DNA of 64,000 nt from an uncultured Acidobacteriota bacterium (GTDB lineage Bacteria > Actinomycetota > Acidimicrobiia > Spongiisociales > ZC4RG35). Positions 2,384 to 59,732 of this stretch are shown here, piece by piece. The notes beneath the pieces were generated by a model that ran no database searches, was not told the origin of the DNA, and worked only from the letters and a program-made list of their open reading frames with translations. The stretch covers positions 15,720-79,719 of the forward strand of contig CAWBJJ010000008.1 of the NCBI GenBank assembly GCA_963789135.1, in the 5' to 3' direction. A program made the position numbers and the translations under genes. Numbering within the stretch: position 1 is the stretch's first letter; each line of letters starts with the position of its first letter.

Positions 2384-2392
2384 CTCAGCTCC

Positions 2393-2956: not shown

Positions 2957-2957
2957 G

Positions 2958-3866
2958 TCACCATCCCCGGCCGGCGAGACGCTCCGAATCGGTCAACGTT
3001 CCCAGTTCTATCCCGGGCATGGCCTCGCCCAGGCCCCGGGAAACCTTGGCCACAACCTCGGGCTCGTTCCAGAAGGTGGTGGCCTCGACGATGGCCCGCG
3101 CGTACGCATCGGGGTTCGAGCTCTTGAAGATCCCCGAGCCGACGAAAACCCCGTCGACTCCGAGCGACATCATCAGGGCGGCGTCAGCAGGGGTGGCAAT
3201 GCCACCGGCCGCGAAGTTGACAACCGGGAGCTTGCCCAGAGATGCGACCTCGCGGACCAGCTCGAAGGGAGCCTGATGATCCCGGGCCGCAGACATCAGT
3301 TGCGCCTCGTCGAGCTGGGTCAGCGTCCGCATCTCATTGGTCACCGTGCGCATGTGGCGCACTGCTTCCACGACGTTCCCGGTGCCGGCCTCACCCTTGG
3401 TCCGGATCATGGCGGCTCCTTCACCGATGCGGCGCAGAGCCTCGCCCAGGTTGCGGGCGCCACAGACGAATGGGGTAGTGAAGGCCCACTTGTCGACGTG
3501 ATGATCTTCGTCGGCAGGGGTGAGCACCTCGGACTCGTCGATGTAGTCCACACCCAGAGACTGGAGGACCGCAGCCTCGGTGAAATGCCCGATCCGGCAC
3601 TTGGCCATGACCGGGATGGTGACCGCAGCCTGGATCTCTTCGATCTTGGTGGGATCGGCCATGCGGGCGACTCCCCCATCGCGACGTATGTCGGCGGGAA
3701 CTCGCTCCAAGGCCATCACCGCCACCGCGCCGGCTTCCTCGGCGATCTTCGCCTCTGATGCGGTGACCACATCCATGATTACCCCGCCCTTGAGCATTTC
3801 GGCGAGGCCTCTCTTCACACGATCTGTACCGGTTTCCACGGAAGGCTCCATTGAGGGGAAAACCAA
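2958..3866 (-). CDS. pdxS: pyridoxal 5-phosphate synthase lyase subunit PdxS
   Basis: [18 protein letters not shown]...; true start may be the internal MEPSV Met. Confidence 0.9.
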
Positions 3867-3890
3867 TGGTACAGCCTCGGCGTTGATGAT

Positions 3891-4926
3891 CTAAGAGGCT
3901 GTTTCGGCGTAAAGGGAGCGATATGAGGCCCCGACCACGCTCCAGTCGTAGCGACTCGCGATCTCCCGGCCTACTGCAGTGAGCCTCGACCGCTCCGCAG
4001 AGTCACGAAGCAGCTCGACAAGGGCTCTGGCCAGGGCATCGCTGTCACCGACCGGGAAGAATCGGGCCGCGCCCTCCGCGACCGCGACGAACGCGTCCAG
4101 GTTCGAGGAGACGACCGCGGCCCCGGCGGCCATCGCCTCGAGGAGCACGATCCCGAACGACTCGCCGCCGAGTTGTGGGGCCACGAAAACAGACGACGAG
4201 TTGAGGACCTGCGCCTTCTTGCGGTCGTTCACCCTCCCCAGCCACTCGGCGCGGTCGTCGTCGCGGTGGGCACCCATGACGGTCAGGACCGCGTCTGGCA
4301 CCTTGGCGACCACGTCGGCCCAGGCGGTGAGCAGCACCTCGAGGCCCTTGCGCGGCTCGTCGCGCCCAAGAAACGACACCCGGTACCGATCCCGCTCGAC
4401 GTCGACGCGCATCGCCTCCACATCGAGGCCGTTGGGGATGATCCGGGCTTCGAGCCGGGACGGAAGGGGCGACGCCGCGGTCTGGCTGACTGCGGTCACG
4501 GCGGCGCAATTGCCCATCACCTTGGTCAACAGCCCCCCACCCAGTCGATAGGCGAGCCTGGCTGCAGAGCCGGGGGCAGCATGGAATGTCGCCACGACCG
4601 GTGGCCCCGAGTGATTGGCAAAGAGCGACACCAGGGGCATCAGGGGCTCGTGAACGTGGAGGACGTCGAGCTCGCCGGCCACCTCGCGAAGGCGGGATCG
4701 CGATCTGGGGTCGATCGAGATCGGGACCTTGGAGCCGTTCCCGGGAATGGAGACACTCCCACCGAGGTCGATGCCGTCCACGCCTTCCGGCAGGCCCGGG
4801 GCCGAGCACCATGGGGTGATCTCCCTGCCCGCTCAAGTATCGGGCGAGTCCCAGGACCTGGGACTGGACGCCGCCCGGCACGGAGAGGTCATAGGGGCTG
4901 ACCAGCCCGATGCGCATCCCGCTCAT
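3891..4926 (-). pseudogene. pimA: phosphatidylinositol alpha-mannosyltransferase PimA (GT4), interrupted by a single-base frameshift
   Basis: N-terminus MSGMRIGLVSPYDLSVPGGVQSQVLGLARYL in frame of 4926; remainder (…LHVHEPL…GGESFGIVLLEAMAAG…) in frame of 3891..4781; shift maps to GGCCCCGGGCC run near 4792-4805; one extra G restores ...MVLGPGLPEGVDGIDLGG. Confidence 0.7.
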
Positions 4927-10288: not shown

Positions 10289-12219
10289 TTCGCCGGCCGG
10301 GCCGCCAGATCGACGAGCCGGTTGGTGGCCTCGATGACGTCGACCCCACGAGCGTCCCGCTCCTCCCCGTAGAGCCGCAGGCCGACAGTCGAATCCTGGA
10401 TGTCCTGATCGCCGACGACCACCACCGCCGGGTGCTTCTGGCTGAGCGCACGGCGGATCTTCTCGCCAACCGTCTCCTCGCTCTCATCGATTTCGACGCG
10501 GAGGCCGGCATCTGTCATCCGGGCCCCCACCGACAGGGCGTACTCGAGATGACGGTCTGCCACCGGGATCACCGACACCTGGACCGGCGCCAGCCATGCC
10601 GGGAATGCGCCGGCGTAATGCTCGACGAGCACGCCCATGAACCGCTCCAGCGAGCCGGCCTTGGCACAGTGGATCATGTACGGGCGCTCTGAAGCGTTGC
10701 CCGAGGCGGTGTACTCCAGATCGAACCGCTCGGGCAGGGTGAAGTCGAGCTGGATCGTCGAGAGCTGCCAGCGGCGCCCGATGGCGTCCTTGACGTGCAA
10801 GTCGATCTTGGGCCCATAGAACGCCCCTTCGCCCTCCGCCACCCGGTAGGCGACTCCTCGGGCCTTCAGGGAGTCCTCCAGAGCCTTCTGGCTGAACTCC
10901 CAGCGTGACTGCTCTCCCACCGACTTCTCGGGCTGGGTGCTGAGGTCGGCGTCGAACTCGGTGAACCCGAAGTCGCGGAGCCAGGTGAGGACGAAATCGA
11001 GGTGGAGGTCGAGCTCGGACGCGAGTTGGCCCTCGGTGCAGAACGTGTGCGAGTCGTCCTGGGTGAAGCCCCTGGCCCGCAACAGGCCGTGGACGACGCC
11101 TGACTTCTCGTACCGATAGACGCTGCCCAGCTCGGAGAGCCGGATCGGGAGATCGCGATAGGAGCGTCCCCGGCTCTTGTAGATGAGGACGTGAAATGGG
11201 CAGTTCATCGGCTTCACCCGGTACTCATGACCGTGGTCCAGCTCCATGCCCGGGTACATGTTCTCGGCGTAGTAGTCGAGGTGGCCCGAGGTGTGCCACA
11301 GGTCGGCTTTGGCGAGATGAGGGGTGAAGACGAAGTCGAAACCGAACCGCTCATGGAGGGCACGGCTGTGGTCTTCGATCGTCTTGCGGAGCATCCCACC
11401 TTTGGGATGCCAGATCACCAACCCCGATCCGAGGTCGGAGGGAAAGCTGAAGAGGTCGAGGTCGGGCCCGAGGCGGCGATGATCGCGCTTCTCGGCCTCC
11501 TCGATGCGTGCCAGATGCTCTTCCAGCTGGGCAGGGGTCGGCCAGGCCGTCCCGTAGATCCGCTGCAGCTGGTCACGGCTCTCGTCTCCCCGCCAGTAGG
11601 CACCGGAGCTACGCAGGAGCCTGACGGCGCGGATCTTCCCCGTGCTCGGCAGGTGAGGTCCCCTACAGAGGTCGACGAAGTCGAGATTTCGATAGACCGT
11701 CACGTCGTCGCCCCCCGCCACCTGGTCGGGATCGACGCTCTCGATTATCTCCCTCTTGAAGGGATGGCTTGCGAACAGGTCGAGGGCCTGCTCACGATTC
11801 ATCGCTTCTCGAACGAATGGCTGGTCGGCGGCGATGATCTCGCGCATCCGGGCCTCGATCTGCTCCAGGTCCTCGGGAGTGAACGGGCGGTCGACTTTGA
11901 AGTCGTAGTAGAAGCCGTCTTCGATGGCGGGACCGATGGCGAACGTGGAGCCATCGAACAAGCCGAGAACGGCCTGGGCCAGGACGTGGGCAGACGAGTG
12001 GCGGAGGACGTCGAGCCCTTCGGGGGAATCGAGGGTGATCACCGCGAATTCACCGTCGTCTTCGATGGGACGGGCCAAATCGATCAATTGCCCATTGAGT
12101 TTTGCCGCCACCGCGGCACGCGCCAGCCCGGGGCCGATCGAGGCGGCGACCTCGCTCGCGGTCACCCCTTCGGGGTGCTCCACGGCCTTCCCATCCGGAT
12201 AATGAAGCTCTACTGGCAC
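10285..12219 (-). CDS. thrS: threonine--tRNA ligase
   Basis: TGS domain, class II aaRS motifs, anticodon-binding domain; listed ORF begins with TTG at 12294 but GTG at 12217-12219 (VPVELHYPDGKAVE) fits ThrS N-terminus. Confidence 0.9.
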   Translation of the reverse strand: MPVELHYPDGKAVEHPEGVTASEVAASIGPGLARAAVAAKLNGQLIDLARPIEDDGEFAVITLDSPEGLDVLRHSSAHVLAQAVLGLFDGSTFAIGPAIEDGFYYDFKVDRPFTPEDLEQIEARMREIIAADQPFVREAMNREQALDLFASHPFKREIIESVDPDQVAGGDDVTVYRNLDFVDLCRGPHLPSTGKIRAVRLLRSSGAYWRGDESRDQLQRIYGTAWPTPAQLEEHLARIEEAEKRDHRRLGPDLDLFSFPSDLGSGLVIWHPKGGMLRKTIEDHSRALHERFGFDFVFTPHLAKADLWHTSGHLDYYAENMYPGMELDHGHEYRVKPMNCPFHVLIYKSRGRSYRDLPIRLSELGSVYRYEKSGVVHGLLRARGFTQDDSHTFCTEGQLASELDLHLDFVLTWLRDFGFTEFDADLSTQPEKSVGEQSRWEFSQKALEDSLKARGVAYRVAEGEGAFYGPKIDLHVKDAIGRRWQLSTIQLDFTLPERFDLEYTASGNASERPYMIHCAKAGSLERFMGVLVEHYAGAFPAWLAPVQVSVIPVADRHLEYALSVGARMTDAGLRVEIDESEETVGEKIRRALSQKHPAVVVVGDQDIQDSTVGLRLYGEERDARGVDVIEATNRLVDLAARPAK

Positions 12220-12310
12220 AAGGATTATCTCGCTAGCCTGACCCGGGGCAGAGGCTAACTGCCTGTCGGAGCAGTCTGATCGGTCGCAGAGCAACGAGGG
12301 GTTTCAGGGT

Positions 12311-13141
12311 ATGGATGCACGAGAGCTGGTCACGAGCCTCAACCTGAATGGGACCGTCCGAGAGCTTTCGTCCGGAGCCAACAAGCTGTTTCGGCTCCTC
12401 GAGACCGAGAACGCGAGCACGATCGTCAAGGTTTACCCGGTCGCATCCCGGGAGCGTCGTGAGCGCCACGCCCTCGAAGCCCTGAGCGCGGCGCCCTCGG
12501 TGCCCCGCATCCTCGGCCATGGAGTCGCGGGCGAGCAGGCCTGGCTCCAGATGACCGACGGTGGCCATTGGAATCTCTCCAGCCTCCCCAAGAACATCGA
12601 TGCCGTGCAGGCATCCGGTGTCGCTTTGCGTGCCATCCACACTTCTGGAGCCCAGATCACGAACCTGGCTGCCGGGATCGACGCCGATTACGTGCTCAGC
12701 CACTATCGGTCGACGATCGAGCGGCTGGGCCGCTACCGCCGTCGCTTCGGCATGGAGCAGGTAGTGCTCGACAAGGCGCTCGAGATGGAGCCACCACTGG
12801 CCACGACACCGGTGCCGGCGCATACCAAGCCCATGCTCTCCAAGTTCGTCATCGACGAGGAGGGCAATGTGACCATCGTCGACTGGGAGTGGGCAACGCT
12901 GGCCCCTTCGGAGTGGGACCTGACCCTCACGGTCTGGCAACTCGCCCGCAGCATCGGGGAGGACGCGGCTGCAGCCTTCCGTACCGGCTACGGGGCGGAA
13001 TTGCCCGAGAGCCGCTACCGCCCCTGGGTCGCCTATCACTCGGCAATGATGATGCTCGAGGCTGCCGAGGTGCGAGAGGGCAGGCTGGGAAGCCTGCAGT
13101 ACCTGGTTGACGACCTCACCGAGGCCGTCATCGGCACCTGA
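12311..13141 (+). CDS. aminoglycoside phosphotransferase (APH) family / protein-kinase-like fold protein
   Basis: ...VTIVDWEWATLAPSEWDLTLTVW... APH-type catalytic loop. Confidence 0.7.
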   Translation: MDARELVTSLNLNGTVRELSSGANKLFRLLETENASTIVKVYPVASRERRERHALEALSAAPSVPRILGHGVAGEQAWLQMTDGGHWNLSSLPKNIDAVQASGVALRAIHTSGAQITNLAAGIDADYVLSHYRSTIERLGRYRRRFGMEQVVLDKALEMEPPLATTPVPAHTKPMLSKFVIDEEGNVTIVDWEWATLAPSEWDLTLTVWQLARSIGEDAAAAFRTGYGAELPESRYRPWVAYHSAMMMLEAAEVREGRLGSLQYLVDDLTEAVIGT

Positions 13142-47097: not shown

Positions 47098-49374
47098 TCA
47101 GACCTCGACCTGCTGCCGGGCCAGCACCTCTTCCAACTCTTCGACCGTCATCAGCACCTCGCGTGCCTTGCTCCCCTGCGACGGACCGACGACGCCCTGG
47201 CGCTCCAACATGTCCATCATCCGGCCTGCCCGGGCGAACCCGATGCGGAGCTTGCGCTGCAGCATCGATGTGGAGCCCAACTGGCTGCGCACCACCATCT
47301 CCATCGCCTCCCGGGCGAGGGCGGCGTCCTCGGCATCTTCTTCTTCGACCTGGGCGGCCGCCGCCGAAGCGGCAGCCACCTCGAGTACTTCCTGGTCCTT
47401 GTAGACCGCGTCCTGCTGCTTACGGACCCACTCGACGATGGCCTGGACCTCGCTCTCCCGGACCCAGGCCCCCTGGATCCGCTGGGCGCGGGGCTCCTTG
47501 GCGGTGACCACCAGCATGTCGCCCATCCCCACAAGCTTCTCGGCACCGGACCCGTCGAGGATCACCCTGCTGTCGGTCTGCGAGGCGACGCTGAATGCGA
47601 GGCGGCTCGGGATGTTGGCCTTGATCACACCGGTGATCACGTCGACAGATGGGCGCTGGGTGGCGATCACGAGGTGGATCCCGACGGCGCGGGCCATCTG
47701 GGCGATCCGGACCACCGACTCCTCGACCTCCCGCCCGGCAACCATCATCAGGTCGTTGAGCTCGTCGATGATGATCACGATGTAGGGGAAGCGATCGAAG
47801 CCATCGGGGTCGAGCCCGCCGATATCGAGCTTCTCCCGGTATCCCTCGATGTCGCGGACCTTGGCGTCGGCCAGCAGGTCATAGCGGCGGTCCATTTCGG
47901 CGACCGCCCACTTCAGGGCGTCGTTGGCCTTCTTGGGGTTGGTGATGACCTTGGTGAGGAGATGGGGAACCCCGTTGTACTGGCCCAGCTCCACTCGCTT
48001 CGGGTCGACCATGATCAGCCGCACGTCATCGGGATGGGTGCGCATCAACAGGGACGTGACGATCGAGTTGATGCACGACGACTTGCCGGCCCCGGTGGCC
48101 CCGGCGATGAGGACATGGGGCAGCTCGGAGAGGTTGAGCAGCTTGGAGTCCCCGGAGATGTCCATGCCCAGGCCCACGGTCAAGGGATGGGCCGGGATCG
48201 CCGCCTCCGGACTGGAGAGGATGTCGCCCAGTGAGACCAGCCTCCGCTTGTTGTTGGGAACTTCGACTCCGATCGCCGACTTCCCGGGGATGGGAACCAG
48301 GAGACGGACGTCTGGCGTGGCCAACGCGTAGGCGATGTCGTGGGACAGGCTCGACACTCGATTCACCTTGACTCCGGGCGCCAGTTCCACCTCGTATCTG
48401 GTCACGGTGGGGCCGGGGACGATCTTGGTCAGGGCGGCGTCGACACCGTGCTGGGTCAGGGTCTCCTCCAGCTGACGGGCGGTTTCCTCGAGCGAGCGTC
48501 GGTTCACCTCTCCGCCGGTGCCGGCATCGAGGAGGCTGAGCGGCGGGAGCCGGTAGCCGGTGGTGGTGAGATCTACGACCACAGGCTTCTTCACCGGCAG
48601 CGCCGCAGTGGCCGGCTTATCTGTCTTGGGACGGGACGGCTTGGGACGCTCGTGCCGGCCCTTGGCCGGGCCGTCCACCGTCATCGGGCCGATCGCGACA
48701 TGAGCCGGTGCCTTGGGCTTGGGCGTTGGTGAAGTCAATGCCTTCGCAGCCTCCCGGAACGATCGGAACGCGCCACTCACTCCAAGGAACAACTCACGAA
48801 CGCTGGTGTGGGTGGCAACGAGGACCCCCATCGCCATCATCGACACCAGGACGACAAACGCACCCCAGTGCCCGAGGACGCGGCGCAACGGGAACGCGAG
48901 CAACGATCCGACGGCGCCGCCCCTCTCCTTGACCAGTTCGATGTTGGGCATGAGGGCGACCGCCCCGGTGAGCAGATGGAACAACGCCAGTGAGCCGATG
49001 AAGGCGGCGATGCTCCCCGCGACCAGGCGACGTGCGCCTTCCCGGGGCTTTCCGGTGATCAGTGCGAGCCCGACGCCGATCAGGGCAAGCGGCACCGCAT
49101 ATCGCCAGACGCCAAAGAGGAACAAGCTCGCAGTCTCGATGCCTTCTCCAAACGGGCCCGCCAGATCGACGAACGCCAGGATGATCAAGATGGCGATGAC
49201 TATGAGGAACAGGCCCCAGACGTCATCGGTCTGGCGACCCAGAGTTGTCCGAACGTATTCACGACCCGCCACCAGCTTCTGGCGGAACGTGCCCTTCTTC
49301 GGCTTGGTCTTTTTCGCTGTGGACACCCGTCTCCGCCCGGAGGAACCCTTCCGGGTGGGTGTCCTTGTTGGCAT
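47098..49374 (-). CDS. ftsK: DNA translocase FtsK/SpoIIIE
   Basis: N-terminal TM segments, linker, motor domain with Walker A GATGAGKS and Walker B IIIDE, C-terminal gamma wHTH; 758 aa. Confidence 0.9.
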   Translation of the reverse strand: MPTRTPTRKGSSGRRRVSTAKKTKPKKGTFRQKLVAGREYVRTTLGRQTDDVWGLFLIVIAILIILAFVDLAGPFGEGIETASLFLFGVWRYAVPLALIGVGLALITGKPREGARRLVAGSIAAFIGSLALFHLLTGAVALMPNIELVKERGGAVGSLLAFPLRRVLGHWGAFVVLVSMMAMGVLVATHTSVRELFLGVSGAFRSFREAAKALTSPTPKPKAPAHVAIGPMTVDGPAKGRHERPKPSRPKTDKPATAALPVKKPVVVDLTTTGYRLPPLSLLDAGTGGEVNRRSLEETARQLEETLTQHGVDAALTKIVPGPTVTRYEVELAPGVKVNRVSSLSHDIAYALATPDVRLLVPIPGKSAIGVEVPNNKRRLVSLGDILSSPEAAIPAHPLTVGLGMDISGDSKLLNLSELPHVLIAGATGAGKSSCINSIVTSLLMRTHPDDVRLIMVDPKRVELGQYNGVPHLLTKVITNPKKANDALKWAVAEMDRRYDLLADAKVRDIEGYREKLDIGGLDPDGFDRFPYIVIIIDELNDLMMVAGREVEESVVRIAQMARAVGIHLVIATQRPSVDVITGVIKANIPSRLAFSVASQTDSRVILDGSGAEKLVGMGDMLVVTAKEPRAQRIQGAWVRESEVQAIVEWVRKQQDAVYKDQEVLEVAAASAAAAQVEEEDAEDAALAREAMEMVVRSQLGSTSMLQRKLRIGFARAGRMMDMLERQGVVGPSQGSKAREVLMTVEELEEVLARQQVEV

Positions 49375-49436
49375 GTAGCTGAAAACAATACATCGCCATT
49401 GGCTTTGGCTAATGGCATGCGATTCAGGGACAGCGA

Positions 49437-49967
49437 TCAGGGGCGGAGAATGGTGATCCCGCCTCCCGCTGCGATCACCGACGAAGCCAGGTGCCCGGTC
49501 CCGCCCGGCCCGTCACCGCCCTTCCCGTCCCAGAGGAATATGCCCTGCAGCCTGCCTCCTGCCTGCCTCGCCTCGGTCAGCATCCTCTCCGAGTTGAGGG
49601 TGTGCGGGTCATCCGCTCCGAACATGTCAGGGCTGGGGCCGACCACCTCGACCCGTTGGTCGTTGATGACCATGTAGAACGACTTCACCCATTCCTCACC
49701 GGCGAAGCGGACGGATTCCTCGAGGAATTCCTCCTGACCTCGGGGCAGGAAAGCGGAGAGCCTGCGATCGCTCTTCAGCCACTCCTCGGCGAATAGGAGG
49801 TCTCCCCCGCAGGCGAGCCCCGTGATAGCGCTCACGTCAGGGCCATCGATGAGCCAGATGGCGTCGGCGATGTCCCGCCTCACCTGATGCACTCGCTCCG
49901 GCGGGAAGCGCGGGGGTTGACGGCCGGGAGCATCGACCATGTGCCCGGCAAATAGGACCACCTCCAC
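49437..49967 (-). CDS. LOG/SLOG-like Rossmann-fold protein (predicted nucleotide-binding/processing)
   Basis: VVLFAGHMVD strand + ITGLACGGDLLFAEE Gly-rich loop + C-terminal DGPGGTGHL resembling LOG-family PGGxGT motif; assignment by pattern only. Confidence 0.4.
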   Translation of the reverse strand: MEVVLFAGHMVDAPGRQPPRFPPERVHQVRRDIADAIWLIDGPDVSAITGLACGGDLLFAEEWLKSDRRLSAFLPRGQEEFLEESVRFAGEEWVKSFYMVINDQRVEVVGPSPDMFGADDPHTLNSERMLTEARQAGGRLQGIFLWDGKGGDGPGGTGHLASSVIAAGGGITILRP

Positions 49968-49987
49968 TTCCGAATCGTACGGGTGTT

Positions 49988-51562
49988 TCAGTGGCGAGCG
50001 GCCTTGTGACGCCCGTACTCCTCGCGGATCGCCTTGATCGTGATCCCCTCGTTGGCCTGGTAGGTCGCCGACGGGTCATCGAGCCGGCGCATCTTGGCGT
50101 CCCCGGCGTGGTGCACCGCCATCAGCTGCCATGCCTGGTTGAAGACAGGGCTTCCCGAGCTGCCGCCCTCGGTCGGGGCGGTGTAATGCACCCGAAAGCT
50201 CTCCGCGTCATAGGCGAGGAGGTCGTTGCCCCGAATTGAGAACTTGAGCCCTCCCCCGGCCGGGTGGCCGATCACATAGACGTACGCCCCTTCGGTGACC
50301 GGCTGGGGGACCTGGGCGACCTCTATAGGCTGGGTGATGGCCGCCTCGGGCCCCGGGAAGCTGAGGAACGTGACGTCGCAGGTCTCGGGCGGCGAACTCC
50401 AGACGCACTCCATCCCCGTGAGCACGAGATCGGCCCCGTCGACCGACTTGGTCACATCGAAAACGGCCTGGGCCTCGCCAGGGAGCAACTTGCCCACTCC
50501 GGGCTCGGGGCTGCAGACGTGGGCATTGGTGATGAGGATCGGCGACTCCCCGAGCTCGGGATCGAGCAAGGAGCCGCGGACCAGGAAGCCGGTCCCCCAG
50601 GGCTCACCGGAAGCGTCGGTGATCTTGGCCACCGACTCGGCGCACTGCAGCCCTCTCAGCAGGTGGTTGTAGCCCACAGGCAGTGCGGTCCCGAAGATCT
50701 TCTCCAACTGGCCCGGCGAAGTGGGCAACTCGACCTGCGCTGCCCCTCCCAGCTGAAGCTGGCTGTCGGCCATGGCCACCAGGATCGGGTGATGGGGCTC
50801 GAGCTCCCAGATGTCGACCAACTGGCGACGGAGGCTCCGCATCTCGAACGAGGTGACACTGCGACTGGTCGAGAGCTGTTCGGCCGCCGCCACCGCTTCC
50901 TTCTCGGCACCCTCGTCACCGAGAGCGACCAGCGCTTCGATCTCGGTGCTCCGGTCCCACACCGAGCGCAGTTCGGGGTCCTTGTCGCGGGCCAGGCCCA
51001 GGACCTCTCTGGTCAAGGTTGTTGTGTCGACCGCGTCCGACAGTTCGATGCCGTCGCGCTTCGCCCGGCAGGTCAATGCGAGGAGGTTCACGCCATGCCA
51101 GGCGGGGTCGGTGCCACCCTCGTAGCCGGCGCGATAAGCATCGATAGCGCCTACCAAGTCCTCGGAACGGCCCCCGTCGACGAAACGCTCCTTTCGGAGC
51201 CGGCCCATCAGCCCGAGCACCTCGCCCTTCGCCGTGTCGTCGTCGATCGACAGCAAGGACTCGGCGAGCGCCAGGTCGGCGGCGTGAAACGCCCCGATCT
51301 CGATCAACGCCTGGCAATAGCGGCGGCGGGCACCGGCGCCGACCGCCCCCACCGCCAGTGCGGCCTCCCCGACGTCGATGACGTGGTTGAACTCACGCCT
51401 CTTCTCGAGCAAGGCCATGACCTCACCAGCATCTTCCGGGGTGACCGATCCTTCCCACACCTTGGCCCGGACGTCGTCGACCGCGGCCGAGAGGTCTTCG
51501 GGCTTGCCCGAATCGAGGCTGGCTTGAAGCCGCTCACCCAGCGGCGAGTCGAGAAGACCCAT
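49988..51562 (-). CDS. TPR-like helical N-domain fused to trypsin-like (S1) serine peptidase
   Basis: C-terminal ...GTGFLVRG...ITNAHV (His)...GADLVL (Asp)...GGSSGSPVF (Ser); ~290-aa alpha-helical repeat N-terminus. Confidence 0.7.
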   Translation of the reverse strand: MGLLDSPLGERLQASLDSGKPEDLSAAVDDVRAKVWEGSVTPEDAGEVMALLEKRREFNHVIDVGEAALAVGAVGAGARRRYCQALIEIGAFHAADLALAESLLSIDDDTAKGEVLGLMGRLRKERFVDGGRSEDLVGAIDAYRAGYEGGTDPAWHGVNLLALTCRAKRDGIELSDAVDTTTLTREVLGLARDKDPELRSVWDRSTEIEALVALGDEGAEKEAVAAAEQLSTSRSVTSFEMRSLRRQLVDIWELEPHHPILVAMADSQLQLGGAAQVELPTSPGQLEKIFGTALPVGYNHLLRGLQCAESVAKITDASGEPWGTGFLVRGSLLDPELGESPILITNAHVCSPEPGVGKLLPGEAQAVFDVTKSVDGADLVLTGMECVWSSPPETCDVTFLSFPGPEAAITQPIEVAQVPQPVTEGAYVYVIGHPAGGGLKFSIRGNDLLAYDAESFRVHYTAPTEGGSSGSPVFNQAWQLMAVHHAGDAKMRRLDDPSATYQANEGITIKAIREEYGRHKAARH

Positions 51563-51567
51563 GCGTG

Positions 51568-52536
51568 TCAGATACCGAGGCCCTGGCGGACCGCTGCCTG
51601 CACCACCTGCTGCCGGAAGTACTTCCCGGACGGATGCCGGAATGCACCTCCGTTCGACACCACCTCGTCGACCACCTCAGGCTGCCGCTTGCGCTTGTAG
51701 TCGTTGGCGAGAAGCGGGTCGGCGGCGCATACCGGGTCGAGGCGGTCGACCACATTGACCCAGCGCGGAAGCTCGTCGGGAAAGCCGTCGTCCTTCGACC
51801 ATTCCGGCTTCAGGTTGTGCTGGACCTCGGACAGCCCCAGTGGTGTGCCGAGCGTGATCAGCATGTCGACCTTCTTGGTGTCGGCCACGCGCTTCAGGCA
51901 GTCATAGGCGATCACCGAACCAAGACTGTGGGCGACCACGACGTGGGGGCTGCCGTCGATCTCGCCGAGGTCGCCGACGAAGCGCTTCCGGACCTCGTCG
52001 CGGACCTTGAAATTGGCCCCGGCTCGCGGTGAGTGGCTGGAGTTGAACAGGTAGTGGTGGACGTCACGGAGCAGCACCCGCATCATCGGCCTCTTGATGA
52101 ACCAGGGAAGCGGCACCGCCTCCAGTGCCGAGGCCGCGGCCACGCGGGCTTGGGCCGCGACCGGAGGGTCTTGACCGCCGGCCTCGACAGGATGGGTCGC
52201 CTGCTCGATGTCGTCGGGGTGGTCGAGGTCGAGGTCCGAGATCATCGACTCGATGAAGGCCTTCTCCTCACCGCTGGCCGAGTCGATGTAGGACTCGTCG
52301 ACCTCAGTCAGGGCACCGGGCTCGACTCCCTCGTATTCGATCGACTCCTGAGCGCCAGGGGCATCGGTGGCCGCCGCGTACATCACATCCGCCCAATACA
52401 CCATGGATGAAGTCACCCCGTAGACGTCGAGATCGACACCGTCACCACCGTCGGCGAGATCCCGCTTCCAGGAGCTGAGCAAGCGAGCCGGCGAAGGCTG
52501 GTTCATGATGCCGTGAACGAAGGTGATGTGGCCCAT
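51568..52536 (-). CDS. alpha/beta-hydrolase fold esterase/lipase (DUF676/PGAP1-like)
   Basis: ITFVHGIMN (oxyanion HG), VVVAHSLGS (GxSxG nucleophile elbow), ITLGTPLG; long acidic insert; GAGGAGG SD. Confidence 0.65.
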   Translation of the reverse strand: MGHITFVHGIMNQPSPARLLSSWKRDLADGGDGVDLDVYGVTSSMVYWADVMYAAATDAPGAQESIEYEGVEPGALTEVDESYIDSASGEEKAFIESMISDLDLDHPDDIEQATHPVEAGGQDPPVAAQARVAAASALEAVPLPWFIKRPMMRVLLRDVHHYLFNSSHSPRAGANFKVRDEVRKRFVGDLGEIDGSPHVVVAHSLGSVIAYDCLKRVADTKKVDMLITLGTPLGLSEVQHNLKPEWSKDDGFPDELPRWVNVVDRLDPVCAADPLLANDYKRKRQPEVVDEVVSNGGAFRHPSGKYFRQQVVQAAVRQGLGI

Positions 52537-52551
52537 CGAGTCCCTCCTCTT

Positions 52552-53526
52552 CTACGTCGAGCCTAGGTCGACGCCCTCGTACTGATACCCGCTGTTGTCA
52601 CCTTCGACGTCCATCTCGATGGTCCCGGTCGGGATCCGGGCACATCCCCCGTCACTGTCGCCGCCCGCCGAGAAGTTCTCGATCACATAGGCGACCAGTG
52701 GTGTCTCATCGGGGCTCGGGCTGCCCCCGGTCGAGCTGAACCCGTCCGGAAAGTCGTCAGAGCAGTCGACGGTCACCGGGGAAGAGAGTTGAGGCCCGGG
52801 AACGTCGATCTGGACGGAGCTTGCGTCTGCCGTCCCATCGATCCTCGCCCCCTCGGTCTCACTGAGCTCGAACAACAACGCGAAGCTGTGGCGGGCTCCC
52901 TGGTATCCGAGGCTGGTGGGCACCGGCGGCTGGATCCATCGGTCCGGCGGGTAGCCCTGGCGCTCGGCTTCAGCGGTGACGAAGTACTCGTGATTCTGCA
53001 CGCCCAACTCGACGGCGAACCCCTCATCGCCCCCGGCGACGCATGTCGCACTGCCGCCCACCGGGATCGGGTCGAGGGAGCACACGTCTTCGCCGAGATC
53101 CGAACCGTCGAACCCTGAGATCTCCAGGCCGACCACGGTCCCGTTGAGCTGGTCGAGGTTCTCGACGGTGAACTGGACCCAGTAGCGGGGGCTTCCGAGC
53201 TGGGGAACGGACTCCGCCGAGAACCCCGCCGGGAGGAATGGGCCCCCGGCCGACTCACCTACCGCCACAGAGATGAGCACCGACCCCGCGCCTCCTGTGA
53301 AGTCGAACACCGCGGCAGCGATCACCGGGGGCAGGGTTGCCGGGGGCGAGGAGTCGGTGGTGTTCGTCGCCTCCGACGTCGTGGTCTCCTGGCCGGCAGT
53401 GGTCGTCGTCGCCGGATCGACGCTGGTGGTGGTGCTTGCTCCGGTTGTGGTGCTCGCTTCACTCTCGCCGGCGCAGGCGGCGAGTGCCAGGCACAGGGCC
53501 AGGGTCGATGCAATGGTGCGCTTCAT
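52552..53526 (-). CDS. secreted lipoprotein with Thr-rich linker and beta-rich domain
   Basis: MKRTIASTLALCLALAACAG lipobox (LAAC); TTTGASTTTSVDPATTTTAGQETTTSEATNTT linker; GAGGAG SD. Confidence 0.6.
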   Translation of the reverse strand: MKRTIASTLALCLALAACAGESEASTTTGASTTTSVDPATTTTAGQETTTSEATNTTDSSPPATLPPVIAAAVFDFTGGAGSVLISVAVGESAGGPFLPAGFSAESVPQLGSPRYWVQFTVENLDQLNGTVVGLEISGFDGSDLGEDVCSLDPIPVGGSATCVAGGDEGFAVELGVQNHEYFVTAEAERQGYPPDRWIQPPVPTSLGYQGARHSFALLFELSETEGARIDGTADASSVQIDVPGPQLSSPVTVDCSDDFPDGFSSTGGSPSPDETPLVAYVIENFSAGGDSDGGCARIPTGTIEMDVEGDNSGYQYEGVDLGST

Positions 53527-53575
53527 CCCGTACTCCTCACCCCGGAGTTGGGGGGCCACCACCCTACGCGGTCAC

Positions 53576-55637
53576 TTACGGCGCAGGGCACACGACGGTG
53601 TCGATCGGGTCGCCGGGGAGGCTGTTCGCCTCCTCCAGATACGCGTCCGCGGTGTCGCTCAGTCCCAGACCGCACTCGTAGACGAAAGCCAGCGCCATGA
53701 AGAATTCGCGCTTGCTGTCGAGGTCCGGGGCGATCTCGGAGGCAGTCTCGAACTCGGCTATGGCAGCCTCGTTGTCCTCGTCGAGTAAGTGGACGGAGCC
53801 GAGGGTGGCGTGGGCGTCCGCGGCGACATCCAACAACCTGGGCTCGGACTCGATCACCGGCATCAGTGCATCGACAAGCGTCACGAACCTCTCGCCGCCG
53901 CTCGACACCATGGTTGTTCAGGCAGAGATTGATCCGTGCCATCTCGAGCCGCGATCTCTCCGGGAGAAACGAGAACTCGGGGGCCTCCATGAGGGCCACC
54001 TCGTCGAATCCGGCGATGGCGGCTTCGAGCCCTTCGACGTCCCCGGCGCCAGTTCCGCCGCAGGCCGCTCCCTTGGCGCGCTGAAATCCGACCTCCGCCA
54101 GTCCAAAGTGGGCCCGGGCGTAGTCGGGCTCCAGCTCGAGGGCTCGTTGGAAATACCCCTCGGCATCGTCGAGATCCTCCTGCAGGCCGCTCACGTTTCC
54201 CAGGAGATTGAAGACAACTTCCTTGCCATTGCTGTCGACCCTCGACCCGGGCCAGTCGATCGACGCTTGAACGAAGCGCTCCTCAGCCTGGTCGAAGTCA
54301 CCGAGCTGATAGAAGCTGAGCCCGATCGCGAGCTCGGTCAACGCCGTGATCTTGGGTCCCAGGCGCTGGGCGGCGATGCTCAGAGTCCCGGGGTCTGTGC
54401 TGAGAATGGTCTGGTCGTCCATTGCATAGGCGCCGGCGAGCTCCTTGGCGCCGGTCAGACCGCGGTCCGAGATGAAGAACTCGGTGGTGAGCAAGGGCGC
54501 GCCGTTCTCGGTGTCCAGGGTGCCGTAGACGACCACGTCGGCGGCGACTCTCGAGGCGAGCTCGGCCGCTTCCTGGGCCCGTTCCTCTGGGGTGTCCCCC
54601 GCCAGAGGCCCTACCTCGTCAGGACCGGCCACCGCCACCTCGACGTCGGTCTCTTCGGCCACCGCCTCGTCGATTTGGCGGTACAAGGTCTCGGAGACAC
54701 TCGAGGCCGACTCGCCAGTCGACGCGAACTCGGCAACCGCGATGTTGAAATCACCCCCGATTGGCCCCAGTGTCACCACGACGTTGGCTGTGGCCGCCGA
54801 CTCGGCCCCATCCTCGTCCCGAACGGTGAAGCCAAACGAGTCCGGTCCTCGATAACGGGATGGGCCGGTGTAGGAGATCAGGCCACCACCCAGATCGGCG
54901 ATGCTGCCGCCATGCGTCGACTCGTTGTCGACCGTGACCGACAACTCGCCGGAAGCGTCATCCTCGACCCATTCGAGAAGATCGATCTCGGTGGGAATGT
55001 CCCCGATCGCGGTCACCGCCTCCGGAGTGATGGATGGTGGCCGATTGCCCCGAACTACGAGCGCCACACCGAGCACCGCGATTATCAGGACTGCCGCGCC
55101 CAGCCAGGCCCACAGCGGGAACCCGTGCCATCGGCGACGCCAGCCTCCGATGTGGTCGATCAGGTTGTCGACGTCGTCGTCGAATCGATCCGGTCGCACC
55201 GTGACCGCCTGACGGCCAGGCAGGGTCTGCAGCGGCTCGGGCAGTTGGTCGGCGGTGGGCAGGTCGGCGTCTCCGACCAGGACCGGGATCACCTGAACCC
55301 GCCCCATCTCCAGCGCGATGGCGATCTCCCTACGCACCCAGTCTTCAGGGTTGTCGAGACGGCGCTTGCCCCCGGCGTCGGCGGCTAGCCAGTCGGGGCC
55401 GATGATCGCCAGCAGGACATCACTCCTGGCGAGTGCCTCATCCAGAGTGGTGGCGAAGTCCTGACCGGGAGGGATGGTCTCGTGATCAAGCCAGATCGCC
55501 TTGCTCGCGTAGTAATCGGTGAGCGCGGCATGAAGCCGGCCCGCATGTCCTCCCGCATCACTCCGGCGATAGCTGATGAAGATGTCCGGGCTGGCCAGAC
55601 CGCGTTTGATCGAGGCGATCAGTCCAATGCAGAGAAT
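53576..55637 (-). pseudogene. TIR domain - TM - cadherin/Ig-like - TPR repeat protein (one frameshift near C-terminus; no canonical start codon)
   Basis: TIR: SPDIFISYRRSDAGGHAGRLHAALTDYY...LLAIIGPDWLAADAGGKRRLDNPEDWVRREIAIALEMGRVQVIPVLV; TM FPLWAWLGAAVLIIAVLGVALVV; Ig-like LSVTVDNESTHGGSIADLGGGLISYTGP...DSFGFTVRDEDG...VVVTLGP; TPR ...YFQRALELEPDYARAHFGLAEVGF; C-terminal 111 aa continue in frame of 53576..53911 (shift ~53900-53912). Confidence 0.65.
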
Positions 55638-57177
55638 CTACCGCCCGGTCGCCGTCGGCTCCCCGACCGCCAGTTCGAGGCACGCTTTCACTGCGTCGTC
55701 TGCGCGCTCATCATCAGGCACCTCGATGATCGTCGGGCGACCGCCGGCCGAGAGCGAGCCCAGCGTGCCTTCGAGGAGCTCGTCGTCGGTCGTGGCGTCC
55801 ACCAGGAATACCGCTCTGTCGAGGGCGCCCTCTCCGGCCAGCATCTCGATCTCGACGAGGCATCCCTGGTTGTCCGGCCCGAAATCGCGCAGGTCCATGA
55901 GCACCGAATGGCTCATACGCAGCAGCTCGACGACCGCCAACCGCCAGGTGTCGTCGAAGCAGAAGAACTCTTCGACCCGATATCTCGCGTCCGGGTCCTG
56001 GCGCACGACGAGCGATTCGCGCCGCTGCTCGAGAGTGGCCGGCGAATCCACGAAGAGGCGGGGCAGGTCACCGCTGAGGAACGTGAGGAACTCGTCCGGC
56101 TCCACAGAAGCGACCGCGAGGTCCGGGCCACCGATCATCCGCACCGGGCCCAGGTAGCGCCATTGGGCGCTGATCCGGTCCAGGAGTCGCTGGGCGCCCC
56201 GTCGAGGAGAGAACACCCGGAGAACGAGCAGGGCTGCCGGCGCCGAGGGTTTCCGATGGACCACCCGGTAGAGGACCAGGGCCAGGGCGCCCATGGCGAT
56301 GAAGACCGCCATGCCGGCAGCGAAGGCCCAGCCGTCGGTTGGCCTGATGCCGGCCGAGGAGTCGATCGCGAAGACGAAGAACACCGACCCGAGCAGGAGC
56401 ATTTGGTCCGAGAACCCGCTGCCGCGGTACCAGGCGGCGAGAAGCCGGCCGACGAGTACCGCCAGGACCAGCGAGCCTACGAACCCGGCGGCGACACCGA
56501 ACAGGAGCAGATTGGCGTCGCCCCAGTCGATGATCGGGCCTGACGCTGTGATCAACAGGTAGATGGCCTGGGCCCCGGCGATCGCGGCCATCACCGTGCC
56601 GAGGACCAGGGGGCCAACACCCCGGAGGGGCCGCGTCAGGAAGGCGACGACCGCCAACGTCGGGATCAAACTCCACACCCACAGCTCGAACGGCAAGAAC
56701 GGGCCGCTTCCCGCGAACCAACCAGCCGCCATCAGCAAGAGGACGTATATCCCGATGGAGGCCAGCAACCAGCGCCGGGCCCCGCCGGTGACGATCCAGG
56801 TCCCGATCACCGCCGGCCAGGCATAGATCACCGTGAAGACCGTCACTCGGTAGATGGAGAGAGCGATGTCGTTCCAGGTGAGCAGGAGGATGGAAAAGCA
56901 GATGCCTGTGACCACCGCGACCGCGATCACGACCCCGACATTGACCCACACCCCGCGGGGCCTGGTGTCCTGCGGTGACCGCGGGCTTCGACAGGGGTAT
57001 AGGCGAAGTTTGCGAGGCGGCCGGGGCGGCATCGGCCGTTGCTCCACGCCGTTCCATGAGGCGCCGGATCGAGCTCCGGTAGCGACGGAGCAAGAGCCAT
57101 GTGATGGGCAGGGCGAGCACCGCGGCCACCAGGGCGAGGATGAGGGGGATCCCGCCCAGGAACGCCATATCGCTCAT
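55638..57177 (-). pseudogene. polytopic (~12 TM) membrane protein with ~190-aa cytoplasmic C-terminal domain, one frameshift
   Basis: ATG 57177 with GGAGG SD: MSDMAFLGGIPLILALVAAVLALPITWLLL... in one frame, continues ...VWVNVGVVIAVAVVTGICFSILLL... in frame of 57047 (shift ~56970-56990 in GGCCCCGCGGGG); ends at TAG 55638-55640 that is in frame with the downstream TIR domain. Confidence 0.55.
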
Positions 57178-57204
57178 TGGCCTCGCCTCCGCGGCTCGGG
57201 TCGT

Positions 57205-58839
57205 CTAGAGCTCCATCACCACCGGGACGATCACCGGCTTGCGCGCGGTTTCCGCGCGGATCACCTTGCCCACCGCGGACCGAACCGTCTTCTGCAGCTC
57301 TCCAATGTCACTGCGCCCCGCAGCGTGCTCTTCGATCGCTTGGCGCACTGCTTCCGCCGACTTCTCCAGGACGGCGGTCGGGTCGTCCATGAGGCCGTGG
57401 CTGTCGAGGTCGGGGCCGTAGAGGATCTCGCCGGTGTCGTGGTCGATCCCCACGGTGACCACGACCACGCCCTCATCCGCGAGATGGGAGCGGTCGCGGA
57501 GCACCGCAGACTGAACGTCCCCTACAGCCGATCCATCGAGATACACGTAGCCGGCGGGGACAGCCCGGCGCTCCACCATCGTCTTCTTCCCATCGAGGAT
57601 CACCCGGTCGCCGTCTTCGAGGACGTCGACGTGGCGAATGCCCATCGTCCTCGCCAGCTCGGCATGGGCGTGGAGGTGCCGGTACTCGCCATGTACAGGC
57701 ACGAAAGCCCGGGGCCGCAACAGGTTGAGGAAGGTCAGCAACTCCTCGCGGTTGGCGTGACCTGAGACGTGGACGTCGGCGTTCTGGCCGTGGACCACCC
57801 GCGCGCCGCGTCGCATCAGGTTGGAGATCACCTTGGAAACTGCGCTCTCGTTGCCGGGTATCGGCTTTGCCGAAATGAGGACGGTGTCTTCGGGGCCGAG
57901 CTCGACGAACCGGTGACGCCCCTGGGACATGAGGGAGAGAGCAGCGAAGGGCTCGCCCTGGCTTCCGGTGGTGATCATCATCTGCTTGTCCAGCGGCAGC
58001 TTCTCGAGCTCGCTGATGTCGACCAGCGACTTCTCGGGGACCGTGAGAAGCCCCAGCTCCTTGGCCAGCACCGTGTTGCGCTGCATCGAGCGGCCGAAGA
58101 AGGCGATCTTCCGACCCGAGGCGATGCCTGCGTCGACGATCTGCTGGACCCGGTGGATATGAGAGGAGAAACAGGCGGCGAACACCCTCCCCGGGGCGTC
58201 ACGCACGATGTCGGCAATGGGACGGCCAACCGAGCTCTCCGATGGCTCGAATCCTGGCTTCTCGGCGTTGGTCGAATCGGCGAGCAGCAGGCGAACCCCG
58301 CGGCGGCCCAGGGTGGCGAAGGCAGGCAGGTCGGTTGGCACCTGATCGATCGGAGTCGGGTCGAGCTTGAAGTCCCCGGAATGGACGATCACGCCCTCCG
58401 GAGTGTCGAGGGCCACGGCAGCGGCCTCGGGGACCGAGTGGCTGACAGGGATCAGCTGAAAGCGGAACGGCCCATGGTCAGTCCAATTCTTGAATCCAAC
58501 GACACGGAGGTCGGCCTCCACGCCCAGCTCGTCGATCCTCCCCCTGGCAAGCTCCATGCTGAGCCTGGTCCCATAGACCGGCACCGGAACCGCCTTGAGG
58601 AAGTAGGCGAGAGCGCCGGTGTGGTCCTCGTGGCCATGGGTGATGATCACGCACTCGACGTCCTTGGAGCGGGCCGCGAGCCAGGACCAGTCGGGGAATA
58701 CGAGATCGACGCCGAGCATGTCCTCTTCGGGAAACATGAGGCCGCAGTCGATCAATGCGATCTTCCCGGCGATCTCCACGGCGGCGCAGTTGCGACCGAT
58801 CTCCCCCAGGCCCCCGAGAAACGTGACGGAGACGCTCAC
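57205..58839 (-). CDS. rnj: ribonuclease J
   Basis: metallo-beta-lactamase HxHxDH (ITHGHEDHTGAL), beta-CASP and C-terminal domains; GTG start overlapping dapA stop (GTGA). Confidence 0.85.
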   Translation of the reverse strand: MSVSVTFLGGLGEIGRNCAAVEIAGKIALIDCGLMFPEEDMLGVDLVFPDWSWLAARSKDVECVIITHGHEDHTGALAYFLKAVPVPVYGTRLSMELARGRIDELGVEADLRVVGFKNWTDHGPFRFQLIPVSHSVPEAAAVALDTPEGVIVHSGDFKLDPTPIDQVPTDLPAFATLGRRGVRLLLADSTNAEKPGFEPSESSVGRPIADIVRDAPGRVFAACFSSHIHRVQQIVDAGIASGRKIAFFGRSMQRNTVLAKELGLLTVPEKSLVDISELEKLPLDKQMMITTGSQGEPFAALSLMSQGRHRFVELGPEDTVLISAKPIPGNESAVSKVISNLMRRGARVVHGQNADVHVSGHANREELLTFLNLLRPRAFVPVHGEYRHLHAHAELARTMGIRHVDVLEDGDRVILDGKKTMVERRAVPAGYVYLDGSAVGDVQSAVLRDRSHLADEGVVVVTVGIDHDTGEILYGPDLDSHGLMDDPTAVLEKSAEAVRQAIEEHAAGRSDIGELQKTVRSAVGKVIRAETARKPVIVPVVMEL

Positions 58840-59732
58840 AGGCCTTGCAGAGCCCCAACCGCCTTTTCGATGGCTATCAGTGTCTCCTCGGAGGCATCGA
58901 CCAATGGCAGGCGAACCGAGCCCACCGTTTCCCAGAGCCGGTTCATCGCACCCTTCACCGGGGTCGGGTTGGTCTCGAGGAAACACGCCTCACACAAGGG
59001 CAGCAACTCGTGATGGATGCTTCGGGCAATGTCCATCTCACCGGCCAGGGCGGCTTCGACCATGGCCGCCACCCGCCGCCCGGCGAGGTGGCTGATCACC
59101 GAGACCACGCCGATCGCACCGACAGCCATCATCGGCCAGGTGTGCGAATCCTGGCCGCTGTACACCGGCAGGGCAGGGATTCGGTTCACGGTCTGGCTGG
59201 TGAAGTCGACATCCATCACCGCGTCTTTCACAGCAACGATGTTCTCGTGCCGACTGAGCCGGTCCAGGGTCTCGAGCTCGATGAGACGGCCGGTCCGATT
59301 GGGGATGTTGTAGAGCAGCACCGGGACCCCGACGTCTGCGATCGCCTCGAAGTGGGCGACCAGGCCCGACTGGCCCGGCTTGTTGTAATAGGGGGTCACG
59401 GCGAGGGCTCCATGGCAACCGATCTCGCCGGCGCGCCTGGTCAATTCGATCGACTCGGCGGTGTCGTAGCTACCGGTCCCGGCGACCACCATCGTCTTCT
59501 TCCCGGAGACCGAGTCGAGGACCGTCTTGTACAGCGCGAGCTTCTCGGCGGCGCTCAGTGTCGGAGACTCGCCGGTGGTACCGGTGACCACCAGGGTGTC
59601 CGAGCCCTGATCTGCCAGGTATCGCGCCAGGCGCCATGCCTTCTCGTGATCGACCGCGCCGGAATCGGTGAACGGCGTGATCATCGCGGTGGCGACGTGG
59701 CCGAAGGGGGCTTTGGAGTCGAGGCTCACCAC
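58836..59732 (-). CDS. dapA: 4-hydroxy-tetrahydrodipicolinate synthase
   Basis: ...TAMITPF...VVTGTTGESPTLS...; Schiff-base lysine region; 298 aa. Confidence 0.9.
   Translation of the reverse strand: MVSLDSKAPFGHVATAMITPFTDSGAVDHEKAWRLARYLADQGSDTLVVTGTTGESPTLSAAEKLALYKTVLDSVSGKKTMVVAGTGSYDTAESIELTRRAGEIGCHGALAVTPYYNKPGQSGLVAHFEAIADVGVPVLLYNIPNRTGRLIELETLDRLSRHENIVAVKDAVMDVDFTSQTVNRIPALPVYSGQDSHTWPMMAVGAIGVVSVISHLAGRRVAAMVEAALAGEMDIARSIHHELLPLCEACFLETNPTPVKGAMNRLWETVGSVRLPLVDASEETLIAIEKAVGALQGL

Follow-up and report, generated by a model that had tools for sequence, protein, structure and literature searches.

In Escherichia coli, the only confirmed natural non-canonical starts are those of infC and pcnB, both AUU, and in reporter constructs AUA, AUC, AUU and CUG give about 1-2% of the output of AUG, with an N-terminal methionine confirmed for AUC (bioRxiv 10.1101/063800). 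Initiation factor 3 (IF3) suppresses both initiation at non-canonical codons and re-initiation that lacks a Shine-Dalgarno (SD) sequence (PMC2268962). Among co-directional genes that overlap as ATGA or TGATG, the coupled partners often encode subunits of one complex (PMC6728339, PMC10666635), and a stop-to-start distance of -8 to +10 nt is predictive of termination-reinitiation coupling, which is variable at +11 to +20 nt and absent beyond 20 nt (PMC10666635). The locus described here resembles both systems. It lies in a 64,000-nt stretch of contig CAWBJJ010000008.1 from an uncultured bacterium of the Acidimicrobiia (the whole stretch is called the window below), where the gene for a polytopic membrane protein is followed on the minus strand by a gene for a protein with a TIR domain, an immunoglobulin (Ig)-like domain and a tetratricopeptide repeat (TPR) region (Table 1). 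We conclude from sequence comparison, with a probability of roughly 0.75, that these are two separate genes and that the TIR-Ig-TPR protein would start at a near-cognate codon, AUU in the window and AUC in nearly all orthologues; that initiation is non-canonical at some codon of the TIR leader appears very likely.

As with infC and pcnB, an open reading frame (ORF) with an essential domain lacks a canonical start and conserves a near-cognate AUN codon at its beginning, and low output and sensitivity to IF3 proofreading would be expected (10.1101/063800; PMC2268962). Here, in contrast, 26 of the 27 distinct sequences have AUC, and AUU is found only in the window's sub-lineage and in L164/L165; the product is a TIR membrane protein rather than a translation or RNA-processing factor and has no obvious autoregulatory loop; and the proposed start sits inside the 3' end of a second gene. 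As in coupled pairs, the two genes are co-directional and occur as an intact pair in ~20/30 loci, the stop lying a few nucleotides from the start; unlike in those pairs, the restart codon is not ATG, GTG or TTG, overlaps are most often of 10 nt and not of 4 or 1 nt, and a third of the TIR loci have lost the upstream gene with the start site kept. Confirmed natural AUC starts are very rare, and our search of the literature on natural bacterial AUC starts found mostly mitochondrial and eukaryotic papers. The TIR start would add to the known class of non-canonical starts such as infC.

In the window, the membrane ORF ends ...GEPTATGR-TAG, and the frame past this TAG reads ILCIGLIASIKRGLASPDIFISYRRSD, into a complete TIR domain that begins 18 codons past the stop (Pfam TIR_2, E = 2e-15, spanning residues 19-159 counted from the TAG and positions 1-121 of the 122 in the profile). 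The codons between the two (ATT CTC TGC ATT GGA CTG ATC GCC TCG ATC AAA CGC GGT CTG GCC AGC CCG GAC) offer no near-cognate starts other than ATT, ATC and CTG, and a canonical in-frame start is first met at 55337, a GTG that lies 100 codons in and within the TIR domain. With ATG, GTG and TTG together making up 7.0% of codons in the reference genes of the window, a canonical-free run of 18 codons is unremarkable alone (P ~0.27), and one of 100 codons has P ~7e-4. The preliminary description had placed the TIR frame directly after the TAG with no canonical start, and this is borne out by the ORFs and translations of the window and by the junction of L163, an independent Joint Genome Institute (JGI) metagenome contig with 93.9% nucleotide identity over 2.8 kb and a single gap. 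Because the L163 junction is identical to that of the window (GGGCGG TAG ATT CTC TGC ATT GGA CTG ATC), the latter is not an assembly artefact, and a homopolymer sequencing error in the GGG before the TAG is ruled out by the same GGG-TAG junction. Removal of one G from the GGG run restores the usual family tail, ...GGRFSALD*, ending at the TGA at 55619-55621; since L163 shares the insertion, it is real and lineage-specific. Judged from these alignments, the in-frame adjacency of the upstream TAG and the TIR gene is an incidental product of a 1-nt insertion specific to this sub-lineage.

Relatives of the TIR-Ig-TPR protein number in the hundreds, mostly in metagenome-assembled genomes (MAGs) of Acidimicrobiia. 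Orthologous loci were drawn from exact-protein look-ups (L001, L002, L163-L166), GTDB species representatives (L003-L018) and metagenome contigs, mostly from JGI (L083-L100), and the core-clade comparison comprises 27 distinct sequences, which come from JGI metagenome contigs and a minimum of 14 GTDB species representatives. Their common layout is TAG (A/G)TT nnn nnn ATC GGA CTG, 15 codons before IFISYRRSD. The start column holds ATC 26 times and ATT once (the window) and never ATG, GTG or TTG; L163 and L164/L165, fetched after this comparison, have ATT there. The 18-codon leader is free of canonical starts in 26 of the 27. The second and third codons past the TAG are hypervariable. Amino-acid conservation sets in at the ATC, with synonymous variation at several positions among Leu (CTG/CTC/TTG), Lys (AAA/AAG), Arg (CGT/CGC/CGA) and Gly (GGT/GGC/GGA) codons. 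Codon +2 is CTG in 19 sequences, CTC in seven and TTG in one, and between the TAG and this position no codon but the ATC/ATT is near-cognate in all sequences. Four outgroups have an ATG at the homologous start position (L013 ATG GGA TTG, L094 ATG GGA GTC, L098 ATG GAA ATC and L166 ATG TCA ATG). Rare non-canonical initiation, one of three options in the preliminary description, is thus upheld across the family, with ATC or ATT where outgroups have ATG. It had also envisaged that orthologues might have two genes with a canonical start for the TIR protein; two genes are always found, but the canonical start is missing in the orthologues as well.

The ratios of non-synonymous to synonymous differences (pN/pS, Nei-Gojobori), taken in the TIR frame, are 0.95 for codons -15 to -5 and 0.86 for codons -3 to -1, as compared to 0.50 over codons 0 to +14, with 0.35 over codons +7 to +14, and 0.29 across the N-terminal half of TIR. 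In the sequences compared, these ratios show protein-level constraint to begin at the ATC/ATT codon. The family is deeply divergent, with protein identity down to ~50% and synonymous sites near saturation. Neither of the marks of a pseudogene that has lost its start, relaxed constraint (dN/dS near 1) and a start loss private to one genome, is seen: the N-terminal half of the TIR domain is constrained at the ratio just given, and the start-less state is clade-wide. In-frame ATG, GTG and TTG are also depleted about ten-fold in the first 46 codons (55628-55490 in the window, and orthologous loci), at 8/1288 as compared to 629/10331 in the rest of the gene (0.6% versus 6.1%), a comparison among related sequences whose p-value is inflated. 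A possible reason for this depletion is that internal starts able to compete with a weak AUC are avoided.

The 69 orthologue clusters in public databases fall into 10 that begin ahead of the TIR core (mostly the ATG-bearing outgroups, plus L016 with TTG), 38 that begin at scattered codons within the TIR domain, and 21 that are fragments or begin further on. One could take the 38/69 entries at their word and envision true initiation at an internal GTG, TTG or ATG, with the N-terminal half of the TIR domain an untranslated remnant. However, these internal starts fall at non-homologous positions among species (codon 29, 44, 46, 61, 70-72, 80 or 97), the region that they skip has a pN/pS of 0.29 and forms a full N-terminal TIR half that is gap-free in 31 loci, and the Pfam TIR_2 match runs from profile position 1, so we consider an internal start extremely improbable. 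The pattern of gene-caller failure (38/69) is as a gene lacking a canonical start predicts. Because starts are placed inside the TIR domain, many entries carry no TIR annotation and are labelled 'tetratricopeptide repeat protein'. This amounts to a systematic annotation error in over half of public entries, in which half of the TIR domain is cut off, and it hides a receptor-like bacterial TIR protein from domain-based surveys.

A different codon of the leader could also serve as the start: the CUG at +2 (as CUGA with the upstream TGA), AUC or CUG at +6, CUG at +10, or AUC at +15 or +17. The CTGA mimics the classic ATGA overlap of 4 nt, gene callers use the TTG at +2 of L016 (P0020), columns +6, +10 and +17 are always near-cognate among the 27 core-clade sequences, and the NCBI annotation of P0023 (the protein of L017) starts at the ATC of IF-I-SY. 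Yet codon +2 is CTC, which is not near-cognate, in 7/27 sequences, and this rules out the CUG of the CTGA overlap as a universal start. Codons 0 to +14 have a pN/pS of 0.35-0.5 with synonymous changes, against ~0.9 just upstream; the outgroup ATGs align with codon 0; and starts at +15 or +17 would remove the first beta-strand of the TIR fold. We therefore regard initiation elsewhere in the leader as unlikely. The product annotated for P0023 (MSYRRSD...) shows that the pipeline itself fell back on a non-canonical start, which it placed two codons inside the first beta-strand of the TIR domain and not at the conserved upstream ATC.

Several observations nevertheless weigh against the reading of AUC/AUU at codon 0 as the start. 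Because other leader columns are also always near-cognate (+6 ATC/CTG, +10 CTG, +15 ATC/GTC, +17 ATC/ATA), the exact start codon is one that we infer. A change from ATC to ATT is also a synonymous isoleucine change, and ATC is usually the preferred isoleucine codon in high-GC genomes, which is why an unchanged ATC does not by itself mark a start. The C-terminus of the upstream protein (...SD*) is encoded over ATC-GGA-CTG-A as well, which partly confounds the conservation seen there. SD support is modest, with none in the ATT class to which the window belongs, and the commonest overlap (10 nt) falls just outside the coupling range of -8 to +10 nt. Canonical codons have been gained in the leaders of L016 (TTG at +2) and L164/L165 (GTG at -3, TTG at +2 and TTG at +10); a weak start is thus not mandatory, and, since a canonical start is tolerated in these lineages, selection for weakness itself becomes less likely. 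Finally, both genes are frameshifted in the window, and this copy is possibly non-functional in its genome.

The upstream protein begins at ATG 57177 (57177-57175) with MSDMAFLGG...LLLRRYRSSIRRLMERR. An extra base near 56968 as compared to L163 breaks its frame, and ORF finders start at GTG 57047; the first ~70 codons, thereby left out of frame, hold a transmembrane (TM) helix and a conserved RRYR motif. In L163 the upstream gene is intact and ends in the same junction as that of the window. A confident AlphaFold2 model of the protein (pLDDT 87, pTM 0.88) has roughly ten predicted membrane helices and a cytoplasmic C-terminal alpha/beta domain, in place of the 12 TM helices previously assigned to it. 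Searches with its sequence gave no match in Pfam or the PDB, and a Foldseek comparison of the model with the PDB gave nothing significant (best E ~2e-3, TM ~0.2).

Where the upstream gene is intact, its stop lies at -18, -12, -2, +7 or +19 from the A of the ATC. The commonest arrangement, in about 15 loci, is a +1-frame TGA within ATC-GGA-CTG-A (+7) that closes an ORF of 524-565 codons and gives a 10-nt overlap. The upstream TGA of L018 overlaps the ATC by one base (TGATC), the stop of L093 lies 19 nt downstream of the ATC (22-nt overlap), L002 and L010 have two in-frame stops (TGA CGG TAG) with a spacing of +15 nt, and in the window and L163 the stop is the in-frame TAG itself with a spacing of 9 nt. 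In most loci this TAG is instead part of aGT AGg (Ser-Arg) in the conserved tail of the upstream protein, ESR(L/F)xxSD*. The gene is intact in ~20/30 loci and deleted or a remnant in ~10, where the ATC site is still kept. In L083 (2226-2522) and L017 (3795-4022), deletion has left its last ~25-75 codons (...ACLAAAGGTRVGSESRLLESDSDPG), and this sub-clade now has unrelated genes upstream and has lost the TGA at +7 (CTG to CTC), with the TAG and ATC retained.

The shared frame of the two ORFs in the window, L163, L002 and L010 would suit a single membrane-TIR fusion, whether an ancestral one of ~1,200 aa broken by a nonsense substitution or sequencing error or one made through programmed readthrough of the TAG or frameshifting; a broken fusion and stop-codon readthrough were further options of the preliminary description. 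Neither stood up to comparison. None of 86 homologues of the upstream protein (261-681 aa) has a TIR domain or exceeds 681 aa, the distant homologues P0001-P0004 end at the same place, shortly past the same C-terminal domain, and L163 has the same TAG as the window. About 15 loci have the upstream gene in the +1 frame, with its TGA stop 7 nt past the ATC; readthrough in L002 and L010 would have to pass both TGA and TAG; and L083 and L017 still carry the TIR gene although the upstream gene is deleted there. The stretch from the TAG to the TGA contains no slippery heptamer, and its codons 2-3 are hypervariable; the absence of such a site, together with a frame relation that is 0 or +1 and not constant, rules out -1 frameshifting from the upstream frame. 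A fusion in any of these forms is scarcely credible, and two genes with a near-cognate start for the second remain our preferred account.

A more serious alternative, which we consider possible though doubtful, is that the TIR gene and its partner are decaying pseudogenes in this genome, which would make the missing start moot here. Two lesions are found within 3.6 kb when the window is compared to its close relatives: the insertion near 56968 and a change of frame in the TIR-Ig-TPR gene near 53901-53906, at GTCGA[G]CGGC, seen in a plot of third-position GC content (GC3) by frame and in the translations. At the latter, one frame of the TPR region reads ...RLEMARINLCLNNHGVE followed by arginine-rich junk to 53523, and the next frame reads GGERFVTLVDALMPVIESEPRLLDV...CPAP* and supplies the true C-terminus, ...DTVVCPAP*; the orthologues P0018/P0019 read NNHG(A/V)(G/D)G... 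continuously across the site. However, a third frame break within the 64 kb lies in an unrelated S10 serine-carboxypeptidase-like gene (~42.3-40.4 kb, minus strand), where at ~41026 ...RYVNTIGE gives way to junk and ...SESLRDLLARSPRTRVFVANGYYDLATPHF... continues in the next frame, and a related assembly, L001, has its RNase J (2564-4197) split into two ORFs (286 + 258 aa). With these taken together, the three frame breaks in 64 kb look more like assembly indel errors than targeted decay. The start-less arrangement, moreover, is family-wide and under purifying selection and so is not a lesion, and L163 combines the same junction with an intact upstream gene. The scan for frame breaks is noisy in this high-GC sequence, and an RNase Y gene that it flagged proved intact on inspection. 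The two closest relatives of the TIR protein, P0022 and P0057, have frameshifted tails at different positions, consistent with MAG indel errors.

Were translation to begin at the AUC/AUU codon, the initiator tRNA would pair with it with the third base mismatched, and the N-terminus in the window would be fMet-Gly-Leu-Ile-Ala-Ser-Ile-Lys-Arg-Gly-Leu-Ala-Ser-Pro-Asp-Ile-Phe-Ile-Ser-Tyr. Output of the TIR protein would be low, about 1-2% of that from AUG if the E. coli reporter figure applies, and sensitive to IF3 proofreading. Ribosomes terminating on the upstream membrane gene could aid initiation, with the stop within a few nucleotides of the start, and an imperfect SD, GAAAGUAGGU, 7-8 nt upstream in the majority class of loci, may help as well. 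The majority-class leader is GAAAGTAGGTT...ATC; in this class GAAAGTAGGT, which contains the TAG and lies 7-8 nt before the ATC, resembles an extended SD with one core mismatch. Against a generic anti-SD, which may differ from the 16S sequence of this organism, the majority class scores ~-10 kcal/mol, above ~91% of random 20-mers, the window scores -9.6, and the ATT-class loci L001, L002, L004 and L010 do no better than random. A strong SD was accordingly set aside, there being moderate support at most and no signal in the ATT class. RNAalifold found no conserved RNA structure at the start in 12 loci (-7 kcal/mol, 0 compensatory pairs).

Termination-reinitiation coupling, which the preliminary description had named beside readthrough, is plausible where the partner is intact. 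The window (+9 nt) and L018 (-1 nt) have stop-to-start distances within -8 to +10 nt; the 10-nt overlap of most loci lies just beyond this range. Because a third of loci lack the partner and yet keep the start site, coupling is not obligatory. A weak start would limit the amount of the SARM1-like and probably NAD-cleaving TIR protein and link it to the membrane partner. One could go further and envision the AUC/AUU start, bracketed by the TAG at -12 and the TGA at +7, as a translational gate that holds the TIR receptor near-silent and stoichiometrically tied to the membrane partner and that would be de-repressed when start-codon proofreading fails (through IF3 depletion, ribosome-assembly stress or takeover of translation by a phage), in which case the cell would read initiation fidelity itself as a signal for a TIR-based signalling or suicide pathway; we offer this as a speculation that is quite unlikely to hold.

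The resemblance of the protein itself to described TIR proteins is closest for SARM1, whose TIR NAD+ hydrolase domains are its best matches among solved structures (E about 4e-6). The motif of the first beta-strand, (D)VFISYRR, is conserved, and the glutamate of DWVRRE (55328-55326) aligns with that of SARM1 DWVHKE in a DWV(H/R)(K/R)E motif and is invariant in the family alignment A1. The aligned SARM1 residue is the catalytic E642. From these likenesses the TIR protein is probably NAD-cleaving in the manner of SARM1. The two differ in architecture: the window protein has an N-terminal TIR domain followed by a TM helix, the Ig-like domain and TPR, and no ARM or SAM domains. Its predicted topology, with a cytoplasmic TIR domain, one TM helix, and external Ig-like and TPR regions, would be receptor-like. 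Like ThsB of Thoeris and other TIR defence effectors, it is a bacterial TIR protein, and it has weak PADLOC matches (E of 1e-5 to 1e-7 over ~65 residues). In contrast to those systems, there is no ThsA or other known-system partner at the locus, and the gene stands in a housekeeping neighbourhood (dapA, RNase J ... FtsK) that is conserved across species rather than in a variable island. A known anti-phage defence system was accordingly rejected, the PADLOC matches being weak and confined to part of the TIR domain, four neighbouring proteins having been scanned with no significant match, and the context being one of housekeeping genes.

The TIR gene thus represents a widespread Acidimicrobiia family that very probably keeps a non-canonical start over deep divergence, rather than a broken fusion or a case of readthrough. 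With dozens of independent sequences, outgroups that have ATG, and lineages with and without the partner gene, it offers a comparative system for asking why a weak start is kept and how far it depends on coupling.

Table 1. Positions in the window of the elements of the membrane-TIR gene pair.
Feature	Position	Strand	Remark
Upstream partner gene, encoding a polytopic membrane protein whose cytoplasmic alpha/beta C-terminal domain is conserved	55638..57177	-	no Pfam family; true start ATG 57177
Weak SD-like stretch GACCGGGCGGTAGAT	55636..55650	-	window; modest support
In-frame TAG	55638..55640	-	stop of the upstream gene in the window; bounds the TIR reading frame 12 nt ahead of the proposed start; conserved in 25/27 irrespective of where the upstream gene ends
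Proposed start codon ATT (AUU)	55626..55628	-	fourth codon after the TAG
+1-frame TGA inside GGA-CTG-ATC	55619..55621	-	usual upstream-gene stop in orthologues; unused in the window owing to the 1-nt insertion upstream
Putative translated N-terminal leader G-L-I-A-S-I-K-R-G-L-A-S-P-D	55584..55625	-	between proposed start and TIR core; amino-acid conservation, pN/pS 0.35-0.50
TIR domain (Pfam TIR_2)	55161..55583	-	nearest in sequence, among solved structures, to the NADase TIR domains of SARM1
Single predicted TM helix FPLWAWLGAAVLIIAVLGVALVV	55053..55121	-	assigned from the hydrophobic character of the sequence
Bacterial Ig-like domain (Big_9 / Cadherin_5)	54771..55046	-	Pfam
TPR-containing C-terminal region	53576..54383	-	1-nt frameshift near 53901-53906; true C-terminus in next frame, stop 53578-53576

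The order of genes around the pair is the same in the window (47098-59732) and in L001 (1668-13365): dapA, RNase J, the membrane-TIR pair, a lipoprotein-like gene, an unknown gene, a TPR-S + Trypsin_2 protease, an unknown gene and FtsK. The pair is thus a chromosomal module in a housekeeping stretch and not part of a recognised defence island, and the downstream TPR-S/trypsin protease may functionally belong with the TIR protein. Other TIR proteins are found beside two of the orthologous loci. In L002, an FHA-TIR protein (11424-12428, minus strand) lies near the orthologous module, and in L017 a 462-aa TIR or TIR-like protein (2234-3622, minus strand) that begins ...KPVVFISHKHSD lies directly upstream on the opposite strand.

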